Origin: an uncultured bacterium
Lineage (GTDB): Bacteria > Fidelibacterota > Marinisomatia > Marinisomatales > UBA1611
DNA length: 64,000 nt
Reading direction: 5' to 3'
Assembly: GCA_943788175.1 (NCBI GenBank)
Contig: CALSPG010000001.1
Span: 1 to 64,000 of the forward strand
The position numbers and the translations under genes are program-made. A model generated the notes under the pieces. It did no database searches. It was not told the origin of the DNA and saw nothing but the letters and a program-made list of their open reading frames with translations. The stretch's first letter is position 1; every line of letters starts with the position of its first letter. Positions 937-42,351 of the stretch are shown piece after piece.

Positions 937-1908
937 ATGGGAAGATTAAAGTACTGGAAGAGGATAATTCAATCATATTTACTAAATAATGTAAGCCAAC
1001 TTGATTTCTGGCATGGTGAACCGAAGAAGAATTTTGATACTGATATTAATAAATTAAGTCAGTATTATATGCTATTCCATAATAAGGCACTTTATGATGG
1101 TAATTTAGATTCAAATGGGATACCGATGCTAAACTATCATGGTCATATAGGTTTACAGTACAACCCAATAGCTATAAGCCAATGGGGTTTGGGTAACTAT
1201 AACTTATGGATTAAAAATAAACAAAAAGAAAATTACAATAAGTTTATAGCTTGTTCTGAATGGTTAGTAGATAATCTTGTTGAAAATGAACATGGATTAT
1301 GGGTCTGGATGCATGAATTTGATTGGGAGTACAAGGAAACATTAAAATCACCATGGTATTCTGGTTTAGCTCAAGGACAGGGCTTATCTGTTATTGTTAG
1401 AGCATGGGAAGAAACTAGAGATAATAAATATAGAATTGCTTGTGACAGAGTATATAAATCTTTTGAAACTAATATTACTGATGGTGGTGTCATGTATTTA
1501 GATGAAAAAAATCAAAAGTGGATCGAAGAATATATATTAGATGAGCCTACGCATATTTTAAATGGTTTCATTTGGTCTATTTGGGGCGTATATGATTATT
1601 ATTTATCATTTAATTCAGAAAATGTAAAGTGCTTGTTTGATGAATTTATTTCCACAATTGAAAATGAACTTGATAGTTATGATATTGGTTACTGGTCTTT
1701 ATATGAACTCTCTGAAAATAAAATAAAAATGATTTGTAGTAATTTTTATCATCAACTTCATATAGTACAATTAGATATTTTATATGATATTTCGAAAAAA
1801 AATAAGTTTAAAGAAACTTCCTTAAAGTGGGCTCGCTATTCGAAAAATAAATTAAAAAAATACTTTTCTCTTTTTCATAAAATAATATTTAAGGTTTTTT
1901 ACTATTAA
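937..1908 (+). CDS. D-glucuronyl C5-epimerase family protein
   Basis: YNPIAISQWGL, WYSGLAQGQGLS, HILNGFIW, GYWSLYEL and FYHQLHIVQL match the C5-epimerase C-terminal domain. Confidence 0.85.
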   Translation: MGRLKYWKRIIQSYLLNNVSQLDFWHGEPKKNFDTDINKLSQYYMLFHNKALYDGNLDSNGIPMLNYHGHIGLQYNPIAISQWGLGNYNLWIKNKQKENYNKFIACSEWLVDNLVENEHGLWVWMHEFDWEYKETLKSPWYSGLAQGQGLSVIVRAWEETRDNKYRIACDRVYKSFETNITDGGVMYLDEKNQKWIEEYILDEPTHILNGFIWSIWGVYDYYLSFNSENVKCLFDEFISTIENELDSYDIGYWSLYELSENKIKMICSNFYHQLHIVQLDILYDISKKNKFKETSLKWARYSKNKLKKYFSLFHKIIFKVFYY

Positions 1909-3121
1909 AATTTTATTTTTAACTGACTTCTTCCCTCCGGAAGTTAATGCACCGGCTACTAGAACATACGAGCATTGTAAACATTGGGTTGAAAAGGGTG
2001 CAAATGTTACAATAATTACGGGTGCCCCAAATTTTCCAGATGGGAACCTTTATGATGGTTATAAAAATATGATTTATCAAAAGGAAATTTTAGATGGAAT
2101 TAAAATAATAAGAGTATGGACATACATTGCAAAAAATAAGGGCTTTTTCAGGAGGTCAATCGATCAATTTAGCTATGCTTTTAATTCATTAATTGCAGGA
2201 ATTTTTCTGGACTTTGATATAATTATTGCTACATCGCCATCTTTTTTTACTACATGGTCTGCTTTTTTTTTAAGTAAAATTAAAAAAAAACCTTGGGTTT
2301 TTGAACTAAGAGATATTTGGCCAAAGTCTATAAATAGTTTGAAAGTAATGAAAAAAGGATTTCTTTTAAACCTGCTTGAAAATATTGAACTAATACTATA
2401 CAAAGATTGTGATTTAATAATACCTGTTACTTCGTCGTTTAAGACTTACTTAATAAAAAAAGGAATTGATGAGTCAAAAATTCATGTAGTGACTAATGGA
2501 GTTAATCATGATTTCTTTAAAGCTGGTAAGGCTGATCAAAAATTAGTAAAACAGCTTAACCTCACGGATAAAGTTATAATTGGTTACTTTGGAACAGTAG
2601 GTATGGCTCATTCAATAGATTTTGTAGTTAAAACAATTAGTAAGCTATCTTCAAAAAATATTTCTCTATTAATTGTTGGATCTGGAGCTATGAGAGATGA
2701 AATTGAGCATTTAATTAAATCTCAGGGTTTTAAAAACATTGTTATGCTACCATCTATGAAAAAAGATAAATTATTAAAATATATGAGTATTATTGACTTT
2801 GCAATCGTTCCATTAATTAAGTCTGAAGCTTTTAAAGAAGTTCTGCCCTCTAAAATTTTTGAAGCTGCTGCTTTGGAAAAACCAATAATTCTTGGTGTTG
2901 AAGGCGAGGCGAAAGAAATGATTTTAAAATATAATGCAGGAATTTGTTACATACCTGAAGATGAGAATAGTTTAACAACAGTAATTGATAAATTAGTTGA
3001 GAACAATAAATTAATTGTAGATTATAAAAGTGGTTGTAATAAATTATCCTCAGACTTTAATAGAAAAAAATTATCTCAACACATGTATAGTATCTTGTTA
3101 AAATTTTATACTGAAAATTAA
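1904..3121 (+). CDS. Glycosyltransferase family 4 (WbuB-like); real N-terminus lies upstream of the ORF-track start
   Basis: In-frame upstream sequence IKILFLTDFFPPEVNAPATRTYEH from ATT at 1904; ELRDIWP and LPSKIFE motifs. Confidence 0.85.
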   Translation: MKILFLTDFFPPEVNAPATRTYEHCKHWVEKGANVTIITGAPNFPDGNLYDGYKNMIYQKEILDGIKIIRVWTYIAKNKGFFRRSIDQFSYAFNSLIAGIFLDFDIIIATSPSFFTTWSAFFLSKIKKKPWVFELRDIWPKSINSLKVMKKGFLLNLLENIELILYKDCDLIIPVTSSFKTYLIKKGIDESKIHVVTNGVNHDFFKAGKADQKLVKQLNLTDKVIIGYFGTVGMAHSIDFVVKTISKLSSKNISLLIVGSGAMRDEIEHLIKSQGFKNIVMLPSMKKDKLLKYMSIIDFAIVPLIKSEAFKEVLPSKIFEAAALEKPIILGVEGEAKEMILKYNAGICYIPEDENSLTTVIDKLVENNKLIVDYKSGCNKLSSDFNRKKLSQHMYSILLKFYTEN

Positions 3122-3125
3122 TTTC

Positions 3126-3677
3126 ATGTTATCTAGAATAATAGCCTTGTTATTTATATTACTTTTATCTCCGTTATATCTTTTCATTTCAATAGTTATT
3201 TTTCTCGGTAACGGAAGACCTATTTTTATCACTCAAAATAGAACATTAATAGGAAAAAAAAATATTAGACTTTATAAATTTAGAACAATGAAGATCGGTA
3301 CTCCAGATAAAGCGTCCAGATTATTAAGTGGTCCAGAAAAATATATATTAAGCACTGGTAAAGTACTTAGACAGTGGAGTTTAGATGAATTACCACAATT
3401 GTTCAACGTTTTTAAAGGTGAAATGAATTTTATCGGTCCGAGACCATTGCTTGAAAATGAACGAGATGTATTTAAAATGAGAATTGATAAGAATATCATT
3501 GAAATTGAACCTGGTATTACTGGCTGGGCTCAAGTCAATGGCAGGGATAACATTACTAATGAAGAGCGAGTAGAATACGATTATTTTTACATGAAAAATA
3601 GAAGTATCATTTTTGATTTTAAAATTCTTGTCATGACATTTATCAAAACAATTCTGCGAAAGGATATTTCGCATTAA
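3126..3677 (+). CDS. Bacterial sugar transferase (undecaprenyl-phosphate phosphoglycosyltransferase)
   Basis: YKFRTM, SLDELPQLFNV, GPRP and PGITGWAQVNGR motifs. Confidence 0.92.
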   Translation: MLSRIIALLFILLLSPLYLFISIVIFLGNGRPIFITQNRTLIGKKNIRLYKFRTMKIGTPDKASRLLSGPEKYILSTGKVLRQWSLDELPQLFNVFKGEMNFIGPRPLLENERDVFKMRIDKNIIEIEPGITGWAQVNGRDNITNEERVEYDYFYMKNRSIIFDFKILVMTFIKTILRKDISH

Positions 3678-4738
3678 TTCTAATAAAATTATTTTCATTG
3701 TGGGAGCCAGGCCAAATTTTGTTAAAATAGCTCCAATTCTTAATGTATATAAAAAAAATAATTCAGACTTTGTACTAGTTCATACAGGTCAACATTATGA
3801 TAAAAATATGTCTGATGATTTTTTTACAGATTTAAGTATGCCGCAGCCTGATTACTTTTTAGGAGTTGGCTCAGGAACACATGCCTCTCAAACTGCTAAA
3901 GTAATGGTTAAGTTTGAAGAGATTTGCTTAAAAATTAGGCCAAAATTAGTTGTTGTTCCTGGCGATGTTAATTCAACTCTTGCATGTGCGATTGTATGTT
4001 CAAAGTTACATGTTCCAGTAGCACATGTCGAAGCTGGATTAAGATCTTTTGATAAAAAAATGCCAGAAGAAATTAATAGAATACTTACAGACAGGATAAG
4101 TGATATTTTATTTGTTACTGAAAAAAGTGGATTAATTAACCTTGAAAAGGAAGGAATCAGCTCAGATAAAATACACTTTGTAGGAAATACAATGATAGAT
4201 TCTTTAGTTAAGTATTTAGATAGAGCAATTAGTCTAAAAGAGTGGGAAAATTCTAGTTTGACAAAAAATAATTATTGTTTATTAACAATGCATAGGCCCT
4301 CAAATGTTGATGATGTTAAAAATATAGAAAAAGTATTTGACATAATTAAATTTTTCTCTGATAAAATCAATTTTATTTTGCCAGTACACCCAAGACTTAA
4401 AAAAACCATAACAAGTTTGGAAGCTTCACAGCCAAAAAACTTACTTGTAATTAATCCTTTACCATATATAAAATTTTTAAGTTTATTATACGGGGCTAAG
4501 ATTGTTGTAACAGATAGTGGTGGTGTTCAAGAAGAGTCAACATTCCTAAAAATACCATGTATTACTCTTAGAGAAAATACTGAAAGACCAGTAACTATTG
4601 AACATGGAACAAATTATCTTACGGGGTTAAATGTGAAATTAATTACTAAAACATTTGATAACATTTTTAAAAGGTAAATTAAAAACCTCTAAAGAAATTA
4701 AGTTTTGGGATGGAAATTCTTCCCAGAAAATTTTATGA
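3673..4738 (+). CDS. wecB: UDP-N-acetylglucosamine 2-epimerase (non-hydrolysing); frameshift near 3' end, end coordinate approximate
   Basis: VGARPNF, HTGQHYD, HVEAGLRS, TDSGGVQEE and ENTERP; conserved 'FWDGNSSQKI' tail continues in another frame after 4677. Confidence 0.88.
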
Positions 4739-4759
4739 AATATTAGAAGGATATCAAGC

Positions 4760-6170
4760 CTGAAGTTCATTTTACCTAGTTCTTTATTTTTTCATCATTA
4801 ATTATTGGACAGAGTTATTCTACAGATTTCTTTATCTACAATGACAATGAAAGTGACCTTGATCATGGTATAGGGTGGAGTAATAACTCCAGCTTTCCTC
4901 AGCTTAGACCGGAACATTTAAATAAAAAAAATAAACCTACAACTTATGACTCTTTAAACATAGATCTCAGCCTTGGAGCAATTTCTAATAACAAAGATAT
5001 TGGTTTATTATCTTATAGTAGTTTTTCATTTAAAAATGTTTATGCCTTTGCATACAATCGTATAGTAACAAATCCTTCATCATTTGACCGATTTTCTGGA
5101 AAAGCTAGAAAAGTTAGAAGGTTTGGATTCAATTCTTTTGAAACTGATCAATCTGGAATAGGTTATCAATAAAGATAATTATTTTATACAGTTTGGTAGA
5201 GGCCGACAAATTTGGGGAGTTGGTACTGATATGCAAATAAGCCTCAGTAAATATTCCAATCCTTACGATTATGGAATAATTTCTTTTTTATATAATAATT
5301 ATAGATTTGTTTATTTTCATGGCTATCTTGAAAATATTGAGGGTTGGAACAGGTATATTAATGGAAGAGGAATAGAGTTTAATAATTATAATAATTTTTT
5401 GATTAGCTTAAGTGAAATAATCATTTATAGTGGTAAAAATAGACCTTTTGATTTTGCCTACTTAAATCCAATTTTATTCCATTTTGAAATCGAGATGAAC
5501 GAAAGACAAAATAATCTAGAGCTAAGCGATGGAAGTGCAAATGCTGTTTGGCAATTTTCCATTTGATTATTTTTCTAAAAACCAAATTTAGAATTTCTTT
5601 TAATTTTATAATAGATGAACTTGTGATTGATAAAATTGAGAGAGAATCAAAGAAGGATAATGGATTAGGATACTCCTTAAAAATTTCTAAAAGTGTTTTA
5701 AATAAAGGAGAAAGAAATCTAAGTTTTTATGCCACTAGCATAGCAATTGGCACCCATACTTTTAGACATGATGTTGGTACCAATAATTTTGTTAATAGAG
5801 GGACGTCCCTCTAGGATGGCAGGGAGGTAGTGATTCAAAGCAAGGATCAATAGGTTTTATTTTTTAAGAATAAAAGCTCTTTAATAATAGATGGAGAAAT
5901 TATTAAATATACTTTTGGCAAAGAGTCTTTAATAAATAGCTCTTATTTACCTTACCAAGAATTTTCAGATTACCTTAAAACATCTTTTCCAAAGTGGTTT
6001 GATAAAAAACTAATTATATTACTAAATTAAGAATTCAATATATACATACCGAAAAATCTGAAGTATCAGTATCTCTAAAAATCGGTGATTATTCTGATCA
6101 AAAATAAATCTAAAAATGAACTTAAAATATTTTTTGCTTACTATTTTGATTTTATTTACTATAATAAATT
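4760..6170 (+). pseudogene. Multiply frameshifted outer-membrane capsule-assembly (Wzi-like) protein; boundaries approximate
   Basis: Fragments GRGRQIWG, PFDFAYLNP, IDELVID and LGWQGGSDS spread over several frames (ORFs 5231-5566, 5548-5814). Confidence 0.45.
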
Positions 6171-25300: not shown

Positions 25301-27145
25301 ATGTGTGGAATAGTTAGTTATATAGGGAATAAAGATCCTATACCAATTTTAATAAAGGGACTTAGAAGGCTTGAATATCGCGGATATGACTCTGCTGGTT
25401 TAGCCTTATTAGATGGTAAGATCTTAAAGAGTGTAAAAAAAGCTGGGAAAGTATCTGAATTATCAGATCAACTATCTGTTTCGCCACTCAAAGGAAATTG
25501 TGGAATTGCTCATACTAGGTGGGCAACGCACGGTGTTCCCAATGATATAAATGCACATCCTCATTTAGACAAGACCGGGAAAATAGCATTAGTTCATAAT
25601 GGAATAATTGAAAATTATGATTCAATAAAAAAGACATTAGAAAAAAGAGGTGTTGCTTTTTCTAGTGATACTGATTCAGAGGTTCTCGTTCAATTGATAT
25701 CTGAGATATATCACAATGATGAAGATCAATTAGATTTTAAAGATGCAGTAAAAGCTGCATTGCAAGAGGTTGTTGGTGCCTATGGAATTGTTGCTATGTG
25801 TTCCGATGAACCTGACTCACTTTTTGCAGCAAGAATGGGAAGCCCATTAGTTTTAGGTGTGGGTGAGAATGAGTTTTTATTTGCGAGTGATGCTTCGCCA
25901 ATTATTGAATACACAAGAAACGTAATCTATTTAGATGATGGTGAATTTGTTGAGGTAAAAAGTTCTGCCTATTCAATATCAAATATTTATACGGAAGAGA
26001 TTGTTTCAAAAACAATCACAAAGATAGATTTAACGATTGAAGAAATTGAGAAAGGTGAGTTTCCGCACTTTATGTTAAAAGAAATTCATGATCAAAAACA
26101 TTCTATAAGTGACACTCTTCGTGGTAGACTAAATTTAGAAGATGGAACCTCAATGTTAGGTGGTATTAATGATTATTTGCCAAATATTTTGGGAGCATCA
26201 AGAATATATATAACTGCTTGTGGAACTTCCTGGCATGCTGGTCTAATTGGTAAACATCTAATAGAAGAATATGCAAGAGTACCTGTACATGTAGAATATG
26301 CTTCAGAATTCAGATATCGTAATGCAATTATTGATGCAAATACTATTTTGATAGCCATTAGCCAATCTGGAGAAACTGCGGATACATTAGCTGCAATTAA
26401 AAAATCAAAAGAATTAGGTGCATTGACATTAGGAATATGCAATGTTGTTGGTAGTTCAATATCTAGAGAGACTGATGCGGGTATTTTTACTCATGCTGGG
26501 CCAGAAATAGGTGTAGCTTCTACAAAAGCCTTTACTGCGCAAGTTACAGTGCTAATTATGCTTGCGCTTAAAATAGGTAGGAAAAAAGGCGTATCCTTGC
26601 ATAGAGGAAAAGAATTAATAAGTTCATTAAAAAACATTGATATCAATGTTTCAAAAACATTAGAAACTATTAAATTAGTTAGACAAGTTGCAAAGGCAAC
26701 TCGCAAAGCAGATAATTATCTTTACTTAGGTAGAGGCGTTAATTTTCCGGTAGCATTAGAAGGTGCATTGAAATTAAAAGAAATATCTTATATACATGCT
26801 GAAGGTTATCCAGCTGCTGAGATGAAACATGGTCCAATTGCTTTAATTGATAAAGATATGCCAGTAGTTTTTCTTGCTCCTCAAGATGACACGTTTTTGA
26901 AAATTTTATCTAATATTGAAGAAGTAAAAGCTAGGGGTGGTATAATTATTACAGTAACAGATGAAGAGAATGATTCCTTGAACTCTTTATCAGACTATGT
27001 TTTAATTACACCAAAATCTCATCGCTATATTTTTCCAATAACGAGTTCTATTATATTACAAATGTTGGCTTATGAGTTAGCTCAATTTAGAGGCTGTGAA
27101 ATAGATCAGCCCAGAAATCTTGCGAAATCTGTAACAGTGGAATAG
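25301..27145 (+). CDS. glmS: Glutamine-fructose-6-phosphate aminotransferase
   Basis: MCGIV, LEYRGYDSAG, HTRWATHG, SQSGETAD and PRNLAKSVTVE*. Confidence 0.98.
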   Translation: MCGIVSYIGNKDPIPILIKGLRRLEYRGYDSAGLALLDGKILKSVKKAGKVSELSDQLSVSPLKGNCGIAHTRWATHGVPNDINAHPHLDKTGKIALVHNGIIENYDSIKKTLEKRGVAFSSDTDSEVLVQLISEIYHNDEDQLDFKDAVKAALQEVVGAYGIVAMCSDEPDSLFAARMGSPLVLGVGENEFLFASDASPIIEYTRNVIYLDDGEFVEVKSSAYSISNIYTEEIVSKTITKIDLTIEEIEKGEFPHFMLKEIHDQKHSISDTLRGRLNLEDGTSMLGGINDYLPNILGASRIYITACGTSWHAGLIGKHLIEEYARVPVHVEYASEFRYRNAIIDANTILIAISQSGETADTLAAIKKSKELGALTLGICNVVGSSISRETDAGIFTHAGPEIGVASTKAFTAQVTVLIMLALKIGRKKGVSLHRGKELISSLKNIDINVSKTLETIKLVRQVAKATRKADNYLYLGRGVNFPVALEGALKLKEISYIHAEGYPAAEMKHGPIALIDKDMPVVFLAPQDDTFLKILSNIEEVKARGGIIITVTDEENDSLNSLSDYVLITPKSHRYIFPITSSIILQMLAYELAQFRGCEIDQPRNLAKSVTVE

Positions 27146-27390
27146 CAGAAACAACCGGTTATCCTTACCCCTTAAAACTCATTGTAAGATTCTCATTTTC
27201 AGTTATTACCACTAAATTGTGGGATTCAAATTATAGTGAATATCAAGAGTATTTGTATAAACGTATTTGTCAATATAAAGAGGATTTTCTTACCCCTATC
27301 GGTTACAGAAAGATTTCTAAAATATTCAATGATGAGGGATTAAAAACCCCTCGAAATACAGAATTTGGTATTAGACCCATTCTGTGGTAG
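27142..27390 (+). pseudogene. Truncated recombinase-type HTH-like ORF
   Basis: LWDSNYSEYQEYLYKRI...IGYRKISKIFNDEGLKTPRNTEF; reads in the -1 frame through the glmS stop. Confidence 0.55.
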
Positions 27391-27466
27391 TGGTAATGTT
27401 GGAAAGGTATGTGATGTATTAGAACGAAACTTTGTTGGTTACGATTTGAATAACTATATAAGTTGA
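27365..27466 (+). pseudogene. C-terminal fragment of an N4/N6 DNA methyltransferase (beta-class, motif I)
   Basis: LVLDPFCGSG...LERNFVGYDL*. Confidence 0.7.
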
Positions 27467-27480
27467 AACATTTAATGTTT

Positions 27481-28473
27481 TTATTCAACTATCAAATTTT
27501 GATTGTTCACTACAAAATCAAAGGATAAATCTGATAAGCTATTTCCATTCACAGTGGCACCCCAAGGGCCATGACCTTTACCCTGTAATGGATAATAAAC
27601 AAAATCAATTTCATTTGTTTCCCATATAGTTTTTAAATCTTCAGCACTACTAAAAGGTACGGTGGTGTCTTCTGTTCCATGAGCTATAAACAATGATGGG
27701 TTATTTGAGTTAAACCTTTGGTATCCATAAACTAACTCCAGTATTTCTATAGATGCATTATTACCCCAAAAGTCTAAAATTGTTTGTACCTCATAGGTTT
27801 GAGAAAGATTAGTTGTTGATAAGGTACTATCTTCACTTAAACTTATTTCATCTTTATAGTCACCTAATTCTGATACACCGAGTCCTATAGAAGTAATTGC
27901 TCCTGCAGAACCACCACCAACAGTAATATAATCAGTATTAATGTGATAATTATCGGCATTAGCTATAATCCACCTTAAAGCAGCTTTGGCATCTCTGTGA
28001 GCAGGGTACATTGCATAAATTTGGTTGAGATTTGAAGGGGCACCACCAGAAGTGGCATTAATCCATTCTTGTGGAATCGTTCCCATTTGGTCTCTAAGTC
28101 TGTAGTCGATTGAAAATACAACAAAACCTCTTGATGCATAATAATTTGCCATATCCACAATGGCATCCTGTTGCTTGGAACCACCAACAAATGCACCGCC
28201 ATGAATTAACATTAGTAAAGGTCGATTTTGTGAATTATTTTCAGGAACATAAGAGTCCATATATAAAGGGAGTGCAGTTGTATTTGAACTGTTCCAATAA
28301 TCATGACTAAGTCCTTCAGCATAAATGATGTCTTCTGTTATATTAACATCATAGGTAGCATTCAACTTCACTGTTGGTGAAGAACTCTCATTTGTAACTA
28401 TGTTATCATCATCTTTTTCACATGAAATCAAAAAGACCATAATTAGTAAACTTGCAAAAATCTGTTTTATCAT
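27481..28473 (-). CDS. Alpha/beta hydrolase (HSL-like esterase) lipoprotein
   Basis: LISC lipobox, HGGAF, DYRL, GGSAG nucleophile elbow, HGTEDTTVP and GH. Confidence 0.88.
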   Translation of the reverse strand: MIKQIFASLLIMVFLISCEKDDDNIVTNESSSPTVKLNATYDVNITEDIIYAEGLSHDYWNSSNTTALPLYMDSYVPENNSQNRPLLMLIHGGAFVGGSKQQDAIVDMANYYASRGFVVFSIDYRLRDQMGTIPQEWINATSGGAPSNLNQIYAMYPAHRDAKAALRWIIANADNYHINTDYITVGGGSAGAITSIGLGVSELGDYKDEISLSEDSTLSTTNLSQTYEVQTILDFWGNNASIEILELVYGYQRFNSNNPSLFIAHGTEDTTVPFSSAEDLKTIWETNEIDFVYYPLQGKGHGPWGATVNGNSLSDLSFDFVVNNQNLIVE

Positions 28474-28651
28474 AATTTAATTTTTTAAATTTTCTTGTTA
28501 GACGCTTAAAATCATTTAAGGTTTAATTTAATTAACCCCAACCAAGAAACAATGGGATAAACCAAAACTCTCATCTTACATAAAACATATGAAATTAGAT
28601 GTGGGAAAGGATTAAGGGGTAAGGATAACCACCCCACAGAATTACCCCATC

Positions 28652-28663
28652 ACGGTTGAGTAG
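28652..28663 (+). repeat. Synonymous copy of glmS terminal codons (ACG GTT GAG TAG)
   Basis: Encodes TVE*; flanked by the ACCCCACA/TGTGGGGT inverted repeat (28631-28638 / 28668-28675). Confidence 0.7.
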
Positions 28664-28700
28664 ATAATGTGGGGTGAAGGGGTTGTCCAAAGGAATAATA

Positions 28701-29078
28701 TTAAAAACGTTTTTTAGAAATCAGTTTCCCTTTTTCATAAATTACTTCGGATATCTTGTTTCCATCATAATCCCATTCAGTACTTAAACCTTCTAGTTTC
28801 CCACGTTTGTAAGAAAATTCAAAACCCCTACTTCCATCTTCATACCACCCTCGATTTAATCCATGTTCTTTCCCATTTCTAAAATATAACTCAGATGACA
28901 TTACTCCATTAGAGTAATAGGTCTCTTTCTTTGTTTTAATTAACCCTCGAGATCCTTTTCTGTAATACTCTATGTAACGTATATAATCACCCGTAGAGTC
29001 TTTTTCAGTATGAATAATTTCTTGGGAATACATAACCGAACCAATTAATACTGATATAACAAATATATACTTTATCAT
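28701..29078 (-). CDS. Exported MORN-variant (YwqK-like) repeat protein
   Basis: YYSNG, NGKEHG..WYEDG and GKLEG..EWDYDG repeats; signal peptide; no Ala. Confidence 0.75.
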   Translation of the reverse strand: MIKYIFVISVLIGSVMYSQEIIHTEKDSTGDYIRYIEYYRKGSRGLIKTKKETYYSNGVMSSELYFRNGKEHGLNRGWYEDGSRGFEFSYKRGKLEGLSTEWDYDGNKISEVIYEKGKLISKKRF

Positions 29079-29212
29079 ATAAACTCCATTTCTAATCGTT
29101 AATACTACACAAAAGTATCCCCAAGAAATAAAGTAAAACTTGGGGTTTTATTTTTTATAAAGTTATTATTTGTAAATTAGGTGTGATATGAGAAAACCAA
29201 AATAGACATCAG

Positions 29213-29386
29213 ATGAATTATGTCACTCAATATGGTTGGGTATTCTGTGTTCTAATAACTATCCTTTTTTTGATAAAATTTATATTCAATATTACGGAAG
29301 GTGAATATGACTCTAAAAGTCTTTATGGAAATATAAGTTTAATTGGGCTTTCTTTAATTAGTTATTGGTCAAGAACTGATAAATGA
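29213..29386 (+). CDS. Small membrane protein (57 aa, no Ala)
   Basis: MNYVTQYGWVFCVLITILFLIKFIF...; two hydrophobic segments; below the ORF-track cutoff. Confidence 0.4.
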   Translation: MNYVTQYGWVFCVLITILFLIKFIFNITEGEYDSKSLYGNISLIGLSLISYWSRTDK

Positions 29387-29429
29387 ATCCCTTTATAATC
29401 ATATCTTTCCTTTTCAATTCCTTTAAGGT

Positions 29430-30851
29430 TGATTAAATGAAAAAACTCCTTCCATTATTATCTGTATTATTTTTGATTTACTGGAGTTGTGAAGATAAAA
29501 AAGAACCTCCGACTGAAGTAACCTTGTGGGGAGAAATTTATTCAGTGGAAGACACTGAACGTTTAGATTTTCATCGTAACGAACTTACAGGTCCAATCCC
29601 ATCAGAGATTTGGAATCTGACGAATTTAACATATTTAGATTTAAGTGAGAATCAATTCACCGGTTCTATCCCCTCAAAGATTGGTAATCTGACGAATCTG
29701 ACTGTTTTGGATTTAAGTCAGAATCAACTCACCGGTTCTATCCCCTCAAAGATTGGTAATCTGACGAATCTGACTGTTTTGGATTTAAGTCAGAATCAAC
29801 TCACCGGTTCTATCCCCTCAAAGATTGGTAATCTAACGAATCTGACTTATTTGTCATTAAGTGAAAATCTACTAACAGGTGAAATCCCATCAGAGATTTG
29901 GAATCTGACTAATCTGACTGAATTGAATTTATTCAATAATGACCTCACCGGTTCCATCTCTCCAGAGATAGGAAATCTGACCAATCTGACTTTATTGTTA
30001 TTAAGTGATAATCACCTCACTGGTTCTATCCCATCAGAGATTGGTAATCTAACGAATCTGACTGAACTGGGTATATACGGATCGGATATAGGGGTTAATC
30101 AATACCCAGGTTCTATTCCACCGGAAATAGGTAATTTGACCAACCTGACATATTTAAGTTTAGGTAATAAACAATTAACAGGTTCCATTCCACCAGAGAT
30201 AGGAAATCTGACGAATCTGACTTATTTGGATTTATATCGTAATGAACTCACAGGTTCTATTCCACCAGAGATAGGAAACCTGGTCAATCTAGAAAAGATA
30301 TTTTTACATCAAAATGAACTCACAGGTTCTATTCCATCAGAGATAGGTAATATGACCAATTTGATTAGTATCACTTCAGATAATAATCAACTATCAGGTT
30401 CTATTCCACCTGAGATAGGAAATCTGACGAAGCTGAGAGGATTGTATTTAAGTCGTAATGAACTCACCGGTTCCATACCACCTGAGATAGGAAACCTAGA
30501 CAGTTTGAGTCAATTTGATTTAAATAAAAATTACCTCACAGGTTCCATCCCACCAGAGATTGGTAATCTGACGAGACTTACTAATTTAGATTTCAGGGAT
30601 AATTACCTCACAGGTTCTATTCCATCAGAGTTAGGGGATTTGACCAATCTGTACAGATTGTATCTAGACTATAATCGACTGACAGGTTTAATACCAGAGA
30701 CAATATGTGATTTAAATATTAATTGGAGTAGTAGTTTCGCTGTTTCTCAAAACCAACTCTGTCCCCCATATCCATCTTGTATTGAAGATTATGTGGGGTA
30801 TCAGAGAACGAGTGGTTGTGATTAAATGAAAAAACTCCTTCCATTATTATC
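29430..30851 (+). repeat. 33-bp direct repeat TGATTAAATGAAAAAACTCCTTCCATTATTATC (29430-29462 / 30819-30851)
   Basis: Identical copies; the first contains the LRR gene start, the second its stop. Confidence 0.9.
29437..30825 (+). CDS. Leucine-rich-repeat lipoprotein (~15-16 plant-type 24-aa LRRs)
   Basis: WSC lipobox; LTGSIPPEIGNLTNLxxLxLxxN repeats; Cys-containing C-cap. Confidence 0.92.
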   Translation: MKKLLPLLSVLFLIYWSCEDKKEPPTEVTLWGEIYSVEDTERLDFHRNELTGPIPSEIWNLTNLTYLDLSENQFTGSIPSKIGNLTNLTVLDLSQNQLTGSIPSKIGNLTNLTVLDLSQNQLTGSIPSKIGNLTNLTYLSLSENLLTGEIPSEIWNLTNLTELNLFNNDLTGSISPEIGNLTNLTLLLLSDNHLTGSIPSEIGNLTNLTELGIYGSDIGVNQYPGSIPPEIGNLTNLTYLSLGNKQLTGSIPPEIGNLTNLTYLDLYRNELTGSIPPEIGNLVNLEKIFLHQNELTGSIPSEIGNMTNLISITSDNNQLSGSIPPEIGNLTKLRGLYLSRNELTGSIPPEIGNLDSLSQFDLNKNYLTGSIPPEIGNLTRLTNLDFRDNYLTGSIPSELGDLTNLYRLYLDYNRLTGLIPETICDLNINWSSSFAVSQNQLCPPYPSCIEDYVGYQRTSGCD

Positions 30852-30980
30852 AGTAAAAGACTTTTTCTTTTCATTATCTCTCTTCTTTATAAATAACATA
30901 CAATCCAAATACTCAAACCCATCTTTATGGATTGGGTGTATGTTTTTACAGGTTGGACATAAGGTAGGTTTCTTCTTCAT
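30822..30980 (-). CDS. Small CxxC-containing protein (52 aa)
   Basis: MKKKPTLCPTCKNIHPIHKDGFEYLDC; start overlaps the upstream ORF's stop (TAATG). Confidence 0.4.
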   Translation of the reverse strand: MKKKPTLCPTCKNIHPIHKDGFEYLDCMLFIKKRDNEKKKSFTDNNGRSFFI

Positions 30981-31312
30981 TAATGAACCTCTAACATTTT
31001 AACTCTGAAATTTCCAATACCATCTAGGATAGGTTGGGAGAAGAACTCATCTCTCTTTTTCATCTTCTTAATCATACTATCTACCGTAGTTCTACTCTTA
31101 CCAATTTTGTACCCATTCTTAACTAAATACTGGTGGATTTTTGTATAACCTAATCCTTGATTATGAAGTTCCCTAACTTTGTTATGTGTCTGTATTCTAC
31201 TATCTGATAATTGTTTTGTAAGATAGGGGGTAGGATTGAATTGATGAGATGTAATTACATAATCAAAAATGAGATGTGGGGTGATATCATCACTACCTAC
31301 AGAACTTACTCC
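30980..31312 (-). CDS. HTH-like protein, paralogue of 31321-31635; no canonical start before the conserved part
   Basis: TPHLIFDY...RELHNQGLGYTKIHQYLVKNGYKIGKSRTTVDSMIKKMKKRDEFFSQPI. Confidence 0.65.
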   Translation of the reverse strand, partial: GVSSVGSDDITPHLIFDYVITSHQFNPTPYLTKQLSDSRIQTHNKVRELHNQGLGYTKIHQYLVKNGYKIGKSRTTVDSMIKKMKKRDEFFSQPILDGIGNFRVKMLEVH

Positions 31313-31327
31313 ACCACCGTGGAGTAG
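31306..31327. repeat. Back-to-back TVE*/VVE* site with palindrome TACTCCAC-CACC-GTGGAGTA
   Basis: ACC GTG GAG TAG on + strand (31316-31327); GTG GTG GAG TAA on - strand. Confidence 0.75.
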
Positions 31328-31635
31328 AGTTTAGAAGTTCAACTCCATATTTAGTTTTTCAATTTTATACCAAAACTCACCACTTAAATAATACTTACTA
31401 CAACAACCCTGTTTCAGAGGAGAGAAAAGTTATTCAAGATGAAGTCATGAGACTTTATCATGAAGGTTGGGGTTACACAAAGATACATAAACACCTAATC
31501 AAAAATGGTTTCAAGATTGGTAAAAGTAGAACCTGTGTTGATAGTATCATTAAGAATAGATTGAAGAGGGAAGAGTTCTTAAATCAACCCATCATAAAAG
31601 AATATAGAAATTTTGATATTGAGTTTGTATATTAA
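31321..31635 (+). CDS. HTH-like protein; homology extends upstream of the ATG at 31447
   Basis: TPYLVFQF...RLYHEGWGYTKIHKHLIKNGFKIGKSRTCVDSIIKNRLKREEFLNQPI. Confidence 0.65.
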   Translation, partial: GVEFRSSTPYLVFQFYTKTHHLNNTYYNNPVSEERKVIQDEVMRLYHEGWGYTKIHKHLIKNGFKIGKSRTCVDSIIKNRLKREEFLNQPIIKEYRNFDIEFVY

Positions 31636-31655
31636 TCAAGATTAAAGGAGTCAGA

Positions 31656-32210
31656 ATGAAGAAAATTTTATTTATCTCAACATTTATATTTATAGTCGGT
31701 TGTGAAAAAGAACTTAAACTCCAAGAGGTTGGTCGGAATGTATATTATTTTAACAAGGATGGTGAGTTATTTATTGTTGATGATGAATTTCAAAAAAAAG
31801 TTGACACTCAGTTTTCTGTACCAATTGTAAAAAATAAATTTACCTTGGATAAAACTATTGGCTGGGACGGATTAGTTTTGGAATCCAAAGTAGTAGTTAA
31901 ATACATAGAGGGAGATTGTCACTTTAATGTAAAATTAAGTAAAAATAAATTAACTAGTAACTTTGAGAATACGAGTACTTACAAAAGAATTATGAATGAT
32001 TCCAATACTTTAGTGTCTATTCAATTAAAAGAAGAAGATAATTTTTTAATTAAAGAAATTGAAGTATCTCACTCAAAACATCTATTAAATAGATTTGTTG
32101 ATAGTACTTCTGTAACAGGATTTAATTATGGTGGAGTAGTCTCAATTTCAGAGAATTTATTTAAAAAAGTAAAAAGTATTGATCTAATGACTGTAATTGA
32201 CGATTTATAG
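31656..32210 (+). CDS. Hypothetical lipoprotein (no Ala)
   Basis: AAGGAG RBS, IVGC lipobox, 184 aa. Confidence 0.75.
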   Translation: MKKILFISTFIFIVGCEKELKLQEVGRNVYYFNKDGELFIVDDEFQKKVDTQFSVPIVKNKFTLDKTIGWDGLVLESKVVVKYIEGDCHFNVKLSKNKLTSNFENTSTYKRIMNDSNTLVSIQLKEEDNFLIKEIEVSHSKHLLNRFVDSTSVTGFNYGGVVSISENLFKKVKSIDLMTVIDDL

Positions 32211-32251
32211 TCATTTTCCATATTTCTGGAACTTCCAAACTACACTCATCT

Positions 32252-32263
32252 ACAGTCGAATAA
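32252..32263 (+). repeat. Synonymous copy of glmS terminal codons (ACA GTC GAA TAA), likely right island boundary
   Basis: 10/12 identity to the glmS end; followed by a GTTAACTTG/CAAGTTAAC hairpin. Confidence 0.7.
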
Positions 32264-32546
32264 TTTCAACTTTGTTGGTTAACTTGTAGTCTCAGACACC
32301 AAGTTAACGTCGACAAAACCATAACTATAAAACTTACAGAAAAACACTATAATGGATTCTCATTATCTCATTATGAGGTTTTGTTTATTTTTGTTACAGT
32401 TTTTTCAAATTATTAAGCCTTTTCACAAATTTTTTCTACTATTAAACCTAATCTATAGGTAATTATTGGCCCGGCGGCCTTTCAAGCAAGAATGTTTTTC
32501 CTCAAAAAATGCTTGTTGATTACATGCGGGTTTATAAGCTTTACGC

Positions 32547-34196
32547 TTGATTTTTATGCTAAAAATAATATTAATTAGCTTATCCATTTTTTCTATCGGA
32601 TGCGAAACAAAAAAAGAGCGAAAAGAGGAGCGGGCACTTACTATTTATCAAGAAAATACCGCGTCTTGGGTTAGGAACTTTAATCCACTTTCAACATCGG
32701 GAACTGCTAGGTGGCCTACATCATGTGGAATATATGAACCTCTTTTTATTTATAATTCAATGCAGGGTGAATATATACCTTGGCTTTGCACTGACTATAA
32801 ATGGGAAGATAATAATAAGACGTTAATAATGTACGTTAGAGAAAATGTGTTGTGGTCAGATAAAACCCCTTTTTCATCGGAAGATATTGCTTTTACATTT
32901 AACTTGAAAAAGAAACATAAAGGCCTAGATACTAGAGACTCTTGGAGCTATTTAAAAAGCGTAAAAGCATTAAATAAAACAACTGTTGAGTTCAAGTTTA
33001 GTCGAATTTATGTTCCGGGTTTTGACGCAATCGTTGGGCAACCAATTGTAGCTAAACATATATGGGAAAAAATTAAAGATCCAATACGTTTTTCAAATCC
33101 AAACCCTGTTGGGACAGGACCTTTTACTGAAATTCTACGTTTTGACAATCAAGTTTGGGAGCTTGGCAAGAATCCAAACTATTGGCAACCTAATAAACCA
33201 GAAGTGAAAAAACTGAAGTTCCCTGCATTTCCAAGCAATGAACAAGTCACGCTTGCTCTAATTAGTGGAGATTTAGATTGGGCCGGAGCATTTATCCCCG
33301 CAATTGATAGAGTTTATGCAAAAAAAAACCCAGAATTTCATAAGTACTGGTTCTCCGAAACGGGGCACACAACATTTTTTTATACAAACACAATGAACAA
33401 AGTTTTAAAAGATTCAAAAATTCGGAAAGCTATTAGCTATGCAATTGATAGAAGTTTAGTCGTAAAAGTAGGTATGTATAACTACACGGAACCTGCTCAT
33501 GTAACTGGTATATCCGGTAAAATGGCAAAATGGCATCCAAAAGATATAGAAACAAAAGAAAACTGGGTTAAATATAATCCAATACTATCTAATCAGATTT
33601 TTGATGATGCGGGGTATTATAAAAATAAAAATGGTTTTCGTGAAGATAAAAATGGGGACCCATTATCCTTTGATATAATTGTTGTCTCCGGTTGGAGTGA
33701 TTGGATTAGATCTGCCCAAGTTATATCGCAGAATCTTAAAAAAGTTGGTATAAAAGCAAAAGTGAAAACATATGACTTTGGCGCCTGGATGAGCAGAATG
33801 CAAAAAGGTGAGTTTGATATGGCTATAGGTTGGGCAGAAAAGGGGACAAACCCTTTTCCTTTATATAGAGGCATGATGTCATCTAGGTATATAAAACCCA
33901 TAGGGAAAGATGCTGACGCAAATTGGCATAGGTTTTCAACTGCTGAAGTCGATTCTTTATTATTACAATTTGAAAAAACATCAGACAAATATGTGATTAA
34001 AGATATTTTACATAAACTGCAAAATATATTCATTGATTATGCTCCTGCTATACCTCTATTTGCAGAGGTGTCATGGGGAGAATGCAATACGACTTATTTT
34101 ACTAACTTCCCGAGTAAAAAAAACCCCTATGCGCCTTTGTCACCAAACTCCCAGCTAGAAAATTTAATGGTATTAGTTAATGTGAAGGTACGATGA
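32547..34196 (+). CDS. Family-5 ABC substrate-binding lipoprotein, oligosaccharide (cellobiose/chitobiose-type) subgroup
   Basis: SIGC lipobox; NFNPL, YEPLF, NPVGTGPF and GWSDW. Confidence 0.85.
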   Translation: MIFMLKIILISLSIFSIGCETKKERKEERALTIYQENTASWVRNFNPLSTSGTARWPTSCGIYEPLFIYNSMQGEYIPWLCTDYKWEDNNKTLIMYVRENVLWSDKTPFSSEDIAFTFNLKKKHKGLDTRDSWSYLKSVKALNKTTVEFKFSRIYVPGFDAIVGQPIVAKHIWEKIKDPIRFSNPNPVGTGPFTEILRFDNQVWELGKNPNYWQPNKPEVKKLKFPAFPSNEQVTLALISGDLDWAGAFIPAIDRVYAKKNPEFHKYWFSETGHTTFFYTNTMNKVLKDSKIRKAISYAIDRSLVVKVGMYNYTEPAHVTGISGKMAKWHPKDIETKENWVKYNPILSNQIFDDAGYYKNKNGFREDKNGDPLSFDIIVVSGWSDWIRSAQVISQNLKKVGIKAKVKTYDFGAWMSRMQKGEFDMAIGWAEKGTNPFPLYRGMMSSRYIKPIGKDADANWHRFSTAEVDSLLLQFEKTSDKYVIKDILHKLQNIFIDYAPAIPLFAEVSWGECNTTYFTNFPSKKNPYAPLSPNSQLENLMVLVNVKVR

Positions 34197-41220: not shown

Positions 41221-41226
41221 CATTTT

Positions 41227-42351
41227 ATGAAATATTTAAAATATTATATTTCTACCATTACAATTTTGAGCGCTGGGTACATATGCACATTGGGAAAATT
41301 CTTTCCATTGGTGTTTTTCATTTCTTTCTCTTTATTTATAATATTTGGAGATTTGATTTTAAAAGGCGATGATAAAAAACATAATTATAAATATAATTTA
41401 TTCCTAAATCTCCCTATTTATTTGAATCTGCCATTACTAATATTATTTTTGATGACTGTAGTATTCATCCTTGGAAATTCTGATGAAAATGTATACTCAA
41501 TATTTTTTCTAGATATTTTAAATATAGACTTATTACATTTGAGAGAGTCCATTTATTTTTCTGATAAAATAGCACTTATTGCCTTAACAAGCTTATTTAT
41601 CGGCATCATGGGTACAGTTCCAGGACATGAATTAAGTCATCGGATTAAGGAAAAATTTGATTTATTTGTTGGAAATTGGCTTTTATCTTTATCTTGGGAT
41701 TGTGCATTTGCGATAGAACACGTTTATGGACATCATAAAAATGTGGGATTACTTAAAGACCCTGCAACTGCAAAGCGCGGAGAGAATGTGTATAAATTTG
41801 TGTTTACCGCTATCATTAAAGAACAAATTGATGCTTGGAAGATCGAGATTGAGAGATTAAAGCATAAATCATTATTTATTTTCGGTTTTCAAAACAAATT
41901 AATGATAGGGTATTCTAGGAGCGCCCTCATTGCGGTTTTAGCCTTTTATATTGGTGGAATAAAGGGATTATTCATTTTTCTATTATGCGCTTTTACTGCG
42001 AAATCACTTTTAGAGGTTATTAATTATATTGAACATTATGGCTTAATAAGAGTGGCAGGTGAAAAAGTTATGCCAAGACATTCGTGGAATTCTAATAGTG
42101 TAATGAGTAGTATTTATCTCTACAATGTAACTCGACATTCTGCTCATCATGAAAAACCCTATCTTAAGTTTTGGGAGTTGGATGCATACCATAAGGCCCC
42201 TATGATGCCTTATGGATATTTAGCCATGTTATATATGACTATTTTTACTCCTTTTTATTTTCAAAAAATAATGTCTAAAAAGTTAGCAGAATGGGATAAA
42301 CTTTTTGCGTCAGATGAAGAAAGAAAAATAATAAAAGCACAATTTTTATAA
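41227..42351 (+). CDS. alkB: Alkane 1-monooxygenase-like membrane diiron enzyme
   Basis: His boxes HELSH, EHVYGHH, NYIEHYG and RHSAHH; DPATAKRGE. Confidence 0.88.
   Translation: MKYLKYYISTITILSAGYICTLGKFFPLVFFISFSLFIIFGDLILKGDDKKHNYKYNLFLNLPIYLNLPLLILFLMTVVFILGNSDENVYSIFFLDILNIDLLHLRESIYFSDKIALIALTSLFIGIMGTVPGHELSHRIKEKFDLFVGNWLLSLSWDCAFAIEHVYGHHKNVGLLKDPATAKRGENVYKFVFTAIIKEQIDAWKIEIERLKHKSLFIFGFQNKLMIGYSRSALIAVLAFYIGGIKGLFIFLLCAFTAKSLLEVINYIEHYGLIRVAGEKVMPRHSWNSNSVMSSIYLYNVTRHSAHHEKPYLKFWELDAYHKAPMMPYGYLAMLYMTIFTPFYFQKIMSKKLAEWDKLFASDEERKIIKAQFL

Follow-up and report, generated by a model that had tools for sequence, protein, structure and literature searches.

We have analysed a 64-kb window, that is, the whole 64,000-nucleotide stretch of DNA presented above, from the genome assembly of an uncultured bacterium (G000; 2,265,538 bases in 12 contigs, 33% G+C, 92% complete), in which the end of glmS, the gene for glutamine-fructose-6-phosphate aminotransferase, is followed by three further copies of its last codons, Thr-Val-Glu-stop (T-V-E-stop). 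These four copies are very probably attachment-site cores left behind by integrative elements whose insertion target is the last codons of glmS and which encode a large serine recombinase (LSR). The array which they delimit looks like decayed elements stacked one behind another and shortened by internal deletion, not a set of purpose-built cassettes. The system as a whole is one of LSR integrative elements combined with island accretion, its unusual feature being an element attachment site (attP) that lies inside the recombinase gene.

Copies of the glmS terminus downstream of glmS

A search of the window with a 12-mer pattern for the T-V-E-stop core, ACNGTNGARTAR, gave four matches, every one on the plus strand (Table 1); the intervals between them are referred to as modules 1 (27146-28651), 2 (28664-31315) and 3 (31328-32251). 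Copy 1 is the glmS stop itself, and none of copies 2-4 is the end of a listed open reading frame (ORF). Shuffled versions of the window contained a mean of 0.28 matches and reached four in 0 of 100 shuffles. Over both strands of the whole assembly the pattern occurs 14 times, 10 of them outside the glmS cluster, a genome-wide rate from which ∼0.011 copies are expected per 5.1 kb of single strand, compared with the three extra copies observed. A one-mismatch search detected no additional degenerate copies near the array, with 9 one-mismatch matches against 12 expected. An inverted near-copy, GTGGTGGAGTAA, is present on the minus strand at 31317-31306 and shares exactly two bases (AC/GT) with copy 3, the two forming an imperfect palindrome, TTACTCCACC-AC-CGTGGAGTAG. 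The end of the esterase gene in module 1, I-V-E-stop (ATAGTTGAATAA, 27481-27492, minus strand), is also inverted and one mismatch from the pattern, which may be chance. An earlier, sequence-only reading of this stretch had reported the four copies, the inverted near-copy beside them and an excess of the motif over chance (∼0.02 matches expected per 5 kb), and all three were confirmed by the window and assembly-wide searches.

Table 1. Coordinates of glmS, the T-V-E-stop copies and other features of the array in the window.
Feature	Position	Strand	Evidence and remarks
glmS (glutamine-fructose-6-phosphate aminotransferase)	25301..27145	+	Target gene; protein end NLAKSVTVE-stop; Pfam SIS 3.4e-65, GATase_6 3.3e-21; orthologues in relatives
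Copy 1 (glmS stop), ACAGTGGAATAG	27134..27145	+	glmS/module 1 junction: host left arm, element right arm
Copy 2, ACGGTTGAGTAG	28652..28663	+	Module 1/module 2 junction; bridged by contigs from three other runs
Copy 3, ACCGTGGAGTAG	31316..31327	+	Right half of imperfect palindrome
Copy 4, ACAGTCGAATAA	32252..32263	+	Distal end of recognisable array
Imperfect palindrome	31306..31327		Centre at AC of Thr codon; dyad 13/22
Piece A, start of A-type LSR C-terminal segment	27148..27387	+	Directly 3' of copy 1; cut off after 80 codons; no start codon
Type II LSR reading-frame fragment across copy 2 (..NPFTPHYLLNRDGVILWGGYPYPL..)	28598..28720	-	BLASTP
Piece B, type II LSR C-terminal segment	30983..31330	-	No start codon; A3 profile; matches P0001 residues 570-685
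Piece C, type I LSR C-terminal segment	31285..31632	+	No start codon; 70% identical to P0003 residues 528-641, E 3e-55
Perfect 19-bp inverted repeat	27157..27175 / 28612..28630		Each arm encodes G-Y-P-Y-P-L; starts of inward-facing C-terminal pieces
N6/N4 DNA methyltransferase C-terminal fragment (debris)	27344..27463	+	Pfam N6_N4_Mtase 7.7e-5, profile positions 189-214 of 221
Secreted alpha/beta-hydrolase lipoprotein (BD-FAE / carboxylesterase-like; esterase cargo)	27481..28473	-	Pfam BD-FAE 1.8e-27
Small MORN-like repeat lipoprotein (cargo)	28701..29078	-	ORF; weak MORN_2 match; many genomic paralogues
Leucine-rich-repeat (LRR) lipoprotein, 462 amino acids (cargo)	29437..30825	+	Pfam LRR_1 4.9e-58; 13 units of 72 nt
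184-amino-acid lipoprotein (cargo)	31656..32210	+	ORF; no Pfam match or family

Filled and empty glmS ends in relatives

One intact element of 13.8 kb, which can be compared with its empty site, is found in the relative G071. Here a 552-amino-acid LSR ORF, containing Resolvase and Recombinase domains, is convergent with glmS and overlaps the glmS end with its last 13 codons (..SNSHSTVTDFARFLG-stop). A second T-V-E-stop lies ∼13.8 kb from glmS, adjoining a piece which continues that frame through the site as ..LPYSTVTDCLLEGEERS... The two sites have AATCTGTCAC in common, followed by wobble differences. The proximal 12-mer, the current glmS end, is ACGGTAGAATGA and continues into the inverted-repeat arm of the element. 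The distal 12-mer, ACAGTTGAATAA, is together with 69 of 70 flank bases equal to the uninterrupted glmS end of G099, and the same 12-mer with a near-identical flank forms the uninterrupted glmS end of G069. The three differences between the two 12-mers all fall on wobble or stop positions. This comparison of the filled G071 site with the empty G099 and G069 sites is direct evidence that the element supplies a new glmS end, the old end of the host being displaced to the far side of the element. The G071 element also encodes double-zinc-ribbon proteins, many ORFs without a family and a 228-amino-acid serine recombinase (locus L086, 12087-12773) with the catalytic domain and a partial Recombinase domain only.

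Breakpoints in other relatives coincide with the copies. In G007, which belongs to the same genus as the window, the glmS end is joined exactly at the 12-mer to the left part of module 3 (window 31316-31633, 93.7% identity), modules 1 and 2 are absent, and the breakpoints fall on T-V-E-stop copies. The copy 4 site is also kept in this genome (L095 935-975, corresponding to window 32229-32269 at 88%), and by analogy with the distal site of G071 copy 4 is possibly the original glmS end of the host. In G003 and G006, similarity to the window ends at 27144/27145. The sequence-only reading had proposed that units recombine inside the last glmS codons, bring a synonymous replacement end and stack behind the gene, and had asked for a comparison of empty and filled alleles; the exact joint in G007, the exchange of ACGGTAGAATGA for the displaced ACAGTTGAATAA in G071 and the four copies of the present array bear out each of these proposals.

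Among 50 dyad centres tried, the best is the AC of the Thr codon, where symmetry amounts to 17/22 in the unsplit gene of locus L122, 15/22 in that of the metagenome locus L123 and 13/22 in copy 3 of the window. Hybrid sites score lower for dyad symmetry, as expected, and repeats AGAACTATCAA / TTGATAGTTCT are present in the attP arms of L122 and L123. The crossover dinucleotide of an LSR sits at the centre of the symmetry of its site, and application of this general rule to the dyad centres places the crossover at what is probably the AC of the Thr codon.

Division of the recombinase gene at the attachment site

A profile of 18 C-terminal pieces (A3) matched 12 longer proteins of 359-698 amino acids. 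LSR domains (PF07508, plus PF00239 and/or PF13408) are found in 11 of the 12, in which the piece profile matches at the C-terminus, with P0004 lacking a precomputed domain; these assignments were re-checked for three proteins. The Resolvase, Recombinase and zinc-ribbon domains are all present in P0001, P0003, P0005, P0126 and the LSR of G024, and an LSR of the PF00239 type also occurs in G071. We had considered the pieces as leftovers of the LSR Recombinase domain, a possibility that was dropped since the matches sit at the far C-terminus of LSRs. Neither Pfam nor PHROG contains a family for pieces A, B or C.

Unsplit LSRs of 640-690 amino acids occur in metagenomes. One of these, P0005 (643 amino acids), corresponds to the G071 body plus the G071 piece, joined exactly at the site, with ..SNSHSTVTD on one side of the joint and CLLEGEERS.. 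on the other. Similarly, L123 contains an unsplit LSR ORF of 714 codons from stop to stop which holds the reverse complement of the 12-mer, read as L-L-N-G. The removed segment is ∼110 amino acids long, and the cut falls after the Resolvase, Recombinase and zinc-ribbon matches. By these reading frames attP lies inside the LSR gene, so that insertion separates the ∼110-residue C-terminal segment from the LSR body, cutting the gene and removing an extra C-terminal domain alone. Since the cut falls beyond the catalytic and zinc-ribbon matches, the remaining body may stay active.

The association of the pieces with the 12-mer is general. Within the order to which the window belongs, 39 of 233 genomes contain matches to the piece profile, often where a contig ends, and an exact T-V-E-stop 12-mer (with TAA, TAG or TGA) lies within 130 nt of the 5' end in 18 of the 24 pieces that could be assessed, on the opposite strand in 15 and on the same strand in 3; the six pieces without it are mostly decayed copies. 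In metagenome contigs (31 loci), it lies within the same distance in 29 of 31 assessable pieces, every one on the opposite strand. An ATG ahead of the conserved part was found in none of ∼25 pieces examined. LSR bodies are present beside glmS in six genomes (G121, G209, G014, G211, G017 and G071), and all six converge on glmS, either overlapping its end or lying no more than 22 nt away. The search for recombinase genes next to the T-V-E-stop copies which the sequence-only reading had suggested was thus answered by LSR pieces and bodies that adjoin the 12-mer. Among genome contigs, a scan with a piece detected five loci and a scan with P0001 no match, while viral contigs scanned with the piece alignment and with the G024 piece contained no relative.

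The split LSRs belong to two lineages which use the core in opposite orientations. In the type II lineage (P0001, P0002 and G071) the LSR is antisense to glmS and the core is read as L-L-N/H-G/S or, in another frame, Y-S-T-V. In the type I lineage (P0003 and piece C) the LSR is co-directional with glmS, and translation of the core in the -1 frame gives H-R-R/G-V-E. A GTT Val codon is excluded in type I because it would create a TGA in the -1 frame, and in the type I sites observed this codon is always GTG or GTA. The wobble positions are therefore under three constraints, those of GlmS, of the site and of the recombinase frame. In a third related lineage the 632-amino-acid LSR is unsplit, and the 12-mer lies ∼40 nt after its stop (G024:C37 and L124). 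These two loci (L106 of G024:C37, ORF 1495-3393 and 12-mer 3433-3444; L124, ORF 918-2570 and 12-mer 2605-2616) show a classical layout, in which the C-terminal domain is kept and the stop lies 35-40 nt before the T-V-E-stop.

The A-type profile, to which piece A belongs, matches residues 625-711 of a 726-amino-acid protein with Resolvase, Recombinase and Zn_ribbon_recom domains (E 3.1e-5), and relatives of piece A are found directly after glmS in G024 and G148. At L033 (G024:C34), glmS and an A-type piece are followed at 955-5561 by genes for proteins of 223 and 644 amino acids with no significant Pfam or PHROG match, a region which may be part of an unknown mobile element.

A confident AlphaFold model of the C-terminal piece (18 sequences; pLDDT 85.3) consists of a long strand, three to four helices and a second long strand. 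A Foldseek search against the PDB yielded weak matches only, to helix-turn-helix DNA-binding domains and none at E ≤ 0.001, which is at most a suggestion that the domain is helix-turn-helix-like. We hypothesise that the domain may act in site binding or in control of the direction of the reaction.

Content of the array in the window

Each interval between copies contains one or two genes for exported proteins, together with LSR debris at its ends. Module 1 begins with piece A and ends with the inward-facing first 18 codons of a type II piece, and the apposition of these two starts accounts for the perfect 19-bp inverted repeat. The module looks like two adjacent elements fused through deletion. 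BLASTP aligned the fragment over copy 2 with P0004 residues 241-264 (E 3e-6) and with P0006 residues 535-567 (E 4e-6), in both cases across the core. At the left end of module 2 stand ∼17 codons left over from a type II body and at the right end stands piece B, and we read this module as a type II element that has lost its middle and kept its cargo. The first codons of piece B, T-L-L-H-G, contain the reverse complement of copy 3, read as L-L-H-G, and piece C, with which module 3 begins, crosses copy 3 in the -1 frame as H-R-G-V-E-F. Pieces B and C thus stand head to head at copy 3; they are 44% identical over ∼113 residues. Piece C is also 93.7% identical at the DNA level to the sequence directly after glmS in G007. 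Module 3 ends with a conserved arm and copy 4. The earlier statement that no recombinase is encoded in the window finds no support, three LSR C-terminal pieces and one short internal fragment being present, although a catalytic domain was found nowhere in the assembly.

Several further remnants were noted among the cargo. The methyltransferase fragment, 40 codons overlapping the end of piece A, represents the remains of another cargo gene. The first 37 nt of the LRR gene (29430-29466), comprising its ribosome site and the signal peptide MKKLLPLLSV, are repeated after its stop at 30819-30855, where they open a 58-codon ORF (30826-31002) that looks like the stump of a second lipoprotein gene; this signal-peptide stretch recurs at 92% identity behind the glmS gene of G006. 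The LRR repeats (29496-30746) are in-register, and length variants with joints skipping 515-761 nt within the repeats are found among contigs. In four marine runs the esterase region (27416-28435) has a summed contig depth of ∼46-970, compared with ∼16-27 for single contigs flanking the array, and loose contig ends lie just outside the gene (27477 and 28457-28489). The esterase gene, or relatives of at least 90% identity, seem to occur in many other contexts or organisms.

Arrays in relatives and in public metagenomes

Among 32 relatives with a near-full glmS, the contig stops inside the gene or no more than 750 nt beyond its 3' end in ∼14. In 20 downstream stretches taken without regard to content, a second same-strand copy was found within 2.5 kb in 3 and no further copy in 16, at least four of the stretches being too short to judge, while G010 has an opposite-strand copy only. 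Further arrays were seen at loci that had been picked because they contain a piece: in G180 the 5 kb below glmS contain five same-strand copies, G181 has three and a further piece, and G204, G178, G206 and G007 have two each. Three to four copies are also present on each of the metagenome contigs L124, L128, L133 and L135, the last of which includes glmS. G178 retains an LSR-body remnant interrupted by stop codons, which fits decay by deletion. The same layout, consisting of glmS, a core, 2.1 kb, a decayed piece and a second core, is found on a contig titled Flavobacteriales. In G007, the next stretch with similarity beyond copy 4 corresponds to window 41226-42137 (70%). Public contigs branch at window 32325-32354.

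Of the words sampled from window 26600-32700, 60% or more occur in each of 18 marine-metagenome runs from 8 studies. Contigs from four other public runs, each from a different study, bridge copy 1, copy 2 and copies 3 and 4 together, and the array is therefore not a mis-assembly. In four runs module 3 has a contig depth of 3.4-7.5 compared with 16-27 for its flanks; these population data consist of contigs only, and contig depth is not a share of cells.

Proposed mechanism

We propose that the attP of each element holds a synonymous N-GTN-GAR-stop and that exchange takes place at the centre of the site, probably at the invariant AC of the Thr codon, which would leave GlmS with an element-derived but identical end and shift the original glmS end of the host to the far side of the element. 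With attP situated within the LSR frame, between the zinc-ribbon/coiled-coil part and the extra C-terminal domain of ∼110 amino acids, insertion would cut the LSR gene, so that one end of the element keeps the body, now closed by a short new tail, and the other receives a start-less C-terminal piece. The opposite core orientation in the two lineages would yield type I pieces in the direction of glmS and type II pieces in the reverse direction. Repeated insertion beside glmS, in a presumed succession, combined with internal deletion, would finally produce three cargo remnants bounded by four cores, containing the esterase, the MORN and LRR lipoproteins and the small lipoprotein, respectively.

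Several observations weigh against this scheme. G071 provides the single element found with both ends on one contig, and the loss of each LSR body while both sites survived is a step that has to be presumed. The serine-recombinase catalytic domain (PF00239) has no match in the window or in the whole G000 assembly (92% complete), so that, as far as this assembly goes, nothing would appear able to act on the sites in cis, and because of this lack the array is probably inactive unless an element comes in. An occupied (attL-like) site is not one that typical LSRs recombine with attP, which is a difficulty for the formation of a stack. The sequence-only reading had suggested a search for circular junctions or module-order variants; none of the ten listed contig joints ends at a 12-mer, no circular junction was found at the cores, and many loose contig ends lie away from the cores (27353-27477, 28457-28489 and 32325). 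The contigs thus give no evidence of ongoing recombination, excision or module swapping at the cores. G007 and G000 diverge again past copy 4 (32264-32546), so that copy 4 may not be the true island end and the variable region may extend further; alternatively, the peptide-transporter genes from 32547 onward may be absent from G007. In the LSR gene of L122, which shares 95% identity with P0001, the frame changes by one base within an A/G run at ∼2780-2800, just upstream of the core; this could be a sequencing error or a genuine frameshift. Finally, piece A is tied to LSRs solely by the one 726-amino-acid protein and by intermediates, a search for longer relatives of the A-type piece gave none, and its profile-profile comparison with pieces B and C is weak (probability 2.4%).

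Alternative explanations

So short and degenerate a motif might recur by coincidence, or the copies might be the ends of other T-V-E genes conserved without recombination, and one near-copy does indeed end another gene, the esterase. This explanation is nevertheless highly improbable given the shuffling and genome-rate results, copies 2-4 that end no listed ORF, and a 12-mer that recurs at the 5' end of LSR C-terminal pieces in two independent sets (18 of 24 and 29 of 31). Insertion of Tn7-like or CRISPR-associated transposons at attTn7, downstream of glmS, is suggested by the standing of this gene as the classical, textbook target of Tn7. The similarity of relatives, however, breaks at or inside the terminal codons and not ∼25 bp downstream, the flanking repeat is a gene end of 12-22 nt and not a 5-bp duplication, and the recombinase in relatives is an LSR; no transposase-family match was found among the array ORFs scanned, a scan which included no search aimed at Tns proteins. 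We consider a transposon origin to have hardly any chance of being correct.

A better-supported though still unlikely alternative is an integron-like platform, as the sequence-only reading had it, in which cassettes are mobilisable units captured and reshuffled at T-V-E-stop sites in trans, for example by an incoming full-length LSR. The modules are small (0.9-2.7 kb), hold one or two genes for surface or secreted proteins and have the site sequence at both ends, and modules of 0.6-1.4 kb with both cores are also present in G206, G178, L127 and L128. The low depth of module 3 in four runs would suggest presence/absence polymorphism, although contig depth cannot be equated with a share of cells, and one X1 contig has a different arm and core after the end of module 1 (loose end 28630). 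In contrast, the LSR debris at the module ends (pieces A, B and C and the copy-2 fragment) and the decayed body remnant with stop codons in G178 fit whole elements that have shrunk, and no listed contig joint falls at a core. No integron integrase, attI or attC-like structure was seen at the locus, where no attC model was run, and the integron-like array in that sense was not upheld. Decay of stacked LSR elements remains the reading we prefer.

Significance

A hypervariable island of abundant marine bacteria is explained by insertion of LSR elements at the glmS end, as are the contig breaks near that end in relatives; among the related records one is titled Candidatus Neomarinimicrobiota, and the layout occurs also under a Flavobacteriales title. 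An essential gene is safely targeted by means of a carried synonymous replacement of its last codons, which are consequently constrained at once by GlmS, by the recombinase site and by the recombinase frame on either strand. The several LSR lineages, with small, well-defined attP/attB pairs, are also the kind of material from which genome-engineering tools are made.

As regards function, we raise tentatively, and as a proposal more apt to fail than to hold, that the split is a built-in switch, the free element making the full-length LSR, removal of the C-terminal domain changing or silencing the enzyme, and the stacks serving as a platform worked in trans by passing elements. If so, the extra C-terminal DNA-binding domain would be needed for, or would direct, insertion at the glmS end, and resident sites would be acted on solely by a new element or by a tandem junction that rebuilds the full gene. 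The first self-splitting integrase outside the Archaea, and the first in the serine family, would then be at hand. The arrangement makes control of the direction of the reaction by the C-terminal domain testable.

Comparison with known systems

The hallmarks of LSR elements are found in the relatives, namely the domain order, the dyad symmetry of attP and a core-flanked element with its empty site, while the window itself keeps C-terminal pieces without PF00239. Compared with known LSR elements (phiC31, Bxb1, A118 and staphylococcal cassette chromosome (SCC) elements at rlmH), the order of Resolvase, Recombinase and zinc-ribbon domains is the same, as are a short attP with dyad symmetry about a central dinucleotide and insertion into a conserved gene. 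Composite SCC at rlmH offers a similar case of stacking at the 3' end of a housekeeping gene. The differences are that the target here is the last codons of glmS, that attP lies inside the LSR frame, and that insertion removes a ∼110-amino-acid domain with no Pfam family or significant fold match. Durrant et al. (PMC10083194) describe different and distantly related LSR lineages that share one target gene, the genes being others and glmS not being mentioned in the main text; different LSR lineages here likewise share one target, the glmS end. Our literature search, which covered neither subscription journals nor supplements, returned no report of an LSR that targets the glmS end, although the target tables of PMC10083194 might list glmS, and, within the same limits, none of a recombinase, bacterial or of the serine family, whose attP lies in its own gene.

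Accretion of this kind is described for Prochlorococcus tycheposons, for which the consulted parts of the preprint (bioRxiv 10.1101/2020.12.28.424599) report that insertions at one site push older ones inward and leave integrase fragments and partial target copies through the island. In both systems the hosts are streamlined marine bacteria and assemblies break at the island. In contrast, tycheposon islands sit at tRNA genes and mostly use tyrosine recombinases (910 of 937), whereas the repeated unit here is a synonymous copy of the last three codons and stop of a protein and the enzyme is a self-splitting LSR. With integrons the array has in common small gene units, each delimited by a recombination site, that are stacked from a fixed point. 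It differs in that no IntI-type integrase, attI or folded attC was seen at the locus and that the units carry their own recombinase debris; the core sites are 12 nt long and lie within LSR coding sequence. Tyrosine-recombinase (PF00589) matches in G000 fall on contigs C2, C6, C8 and C10, none at this locus.

Coupling of integration to the alteration of an element gene has precedents. In mycobacteriophages with integration-dependent immunity (BPs; Clusters G, N and P), attP lies in the repressor gene, integration changes the repressor C-terminus and the common core rebuilds the host gene, as described in the sections of PMC9262239 that we consulted. There the repressor is cut, by a tyrosine integrase with a tRNA target, whereas here the integrase itself is cut and the target is the end of a protein-coding gene. 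Closer are the SSV-type integrases of archaeal viruses and plasmids (SSV1, pTN3 and pT26-2), the site of which lies in their own gene and which are split on integration, according to the relevant parts of PMC8371274 and PMC7253208; these are tyrosine integrases, and the 2021 review, in the passage used here, calls self-splitting exclusively archaeal (PMC8371274). The glmS-end LSRs share with these 'suicidal' integrases an attP within the integrase ORF and a gene that is split on integration, and differ in being serine recombinases, in having a bacterial host (a transfer-messenger RNA gene is present in G000) and in losing an extra C-terminal domain alone. Given the serine domains and the bacterial host, the glmS-end LSRs are therefore an analogue of the SSV-type integrases and not a member of that group, and self-cutting integrases are thereby extended from archaeal tyrosine to bacterial serine enzymes.

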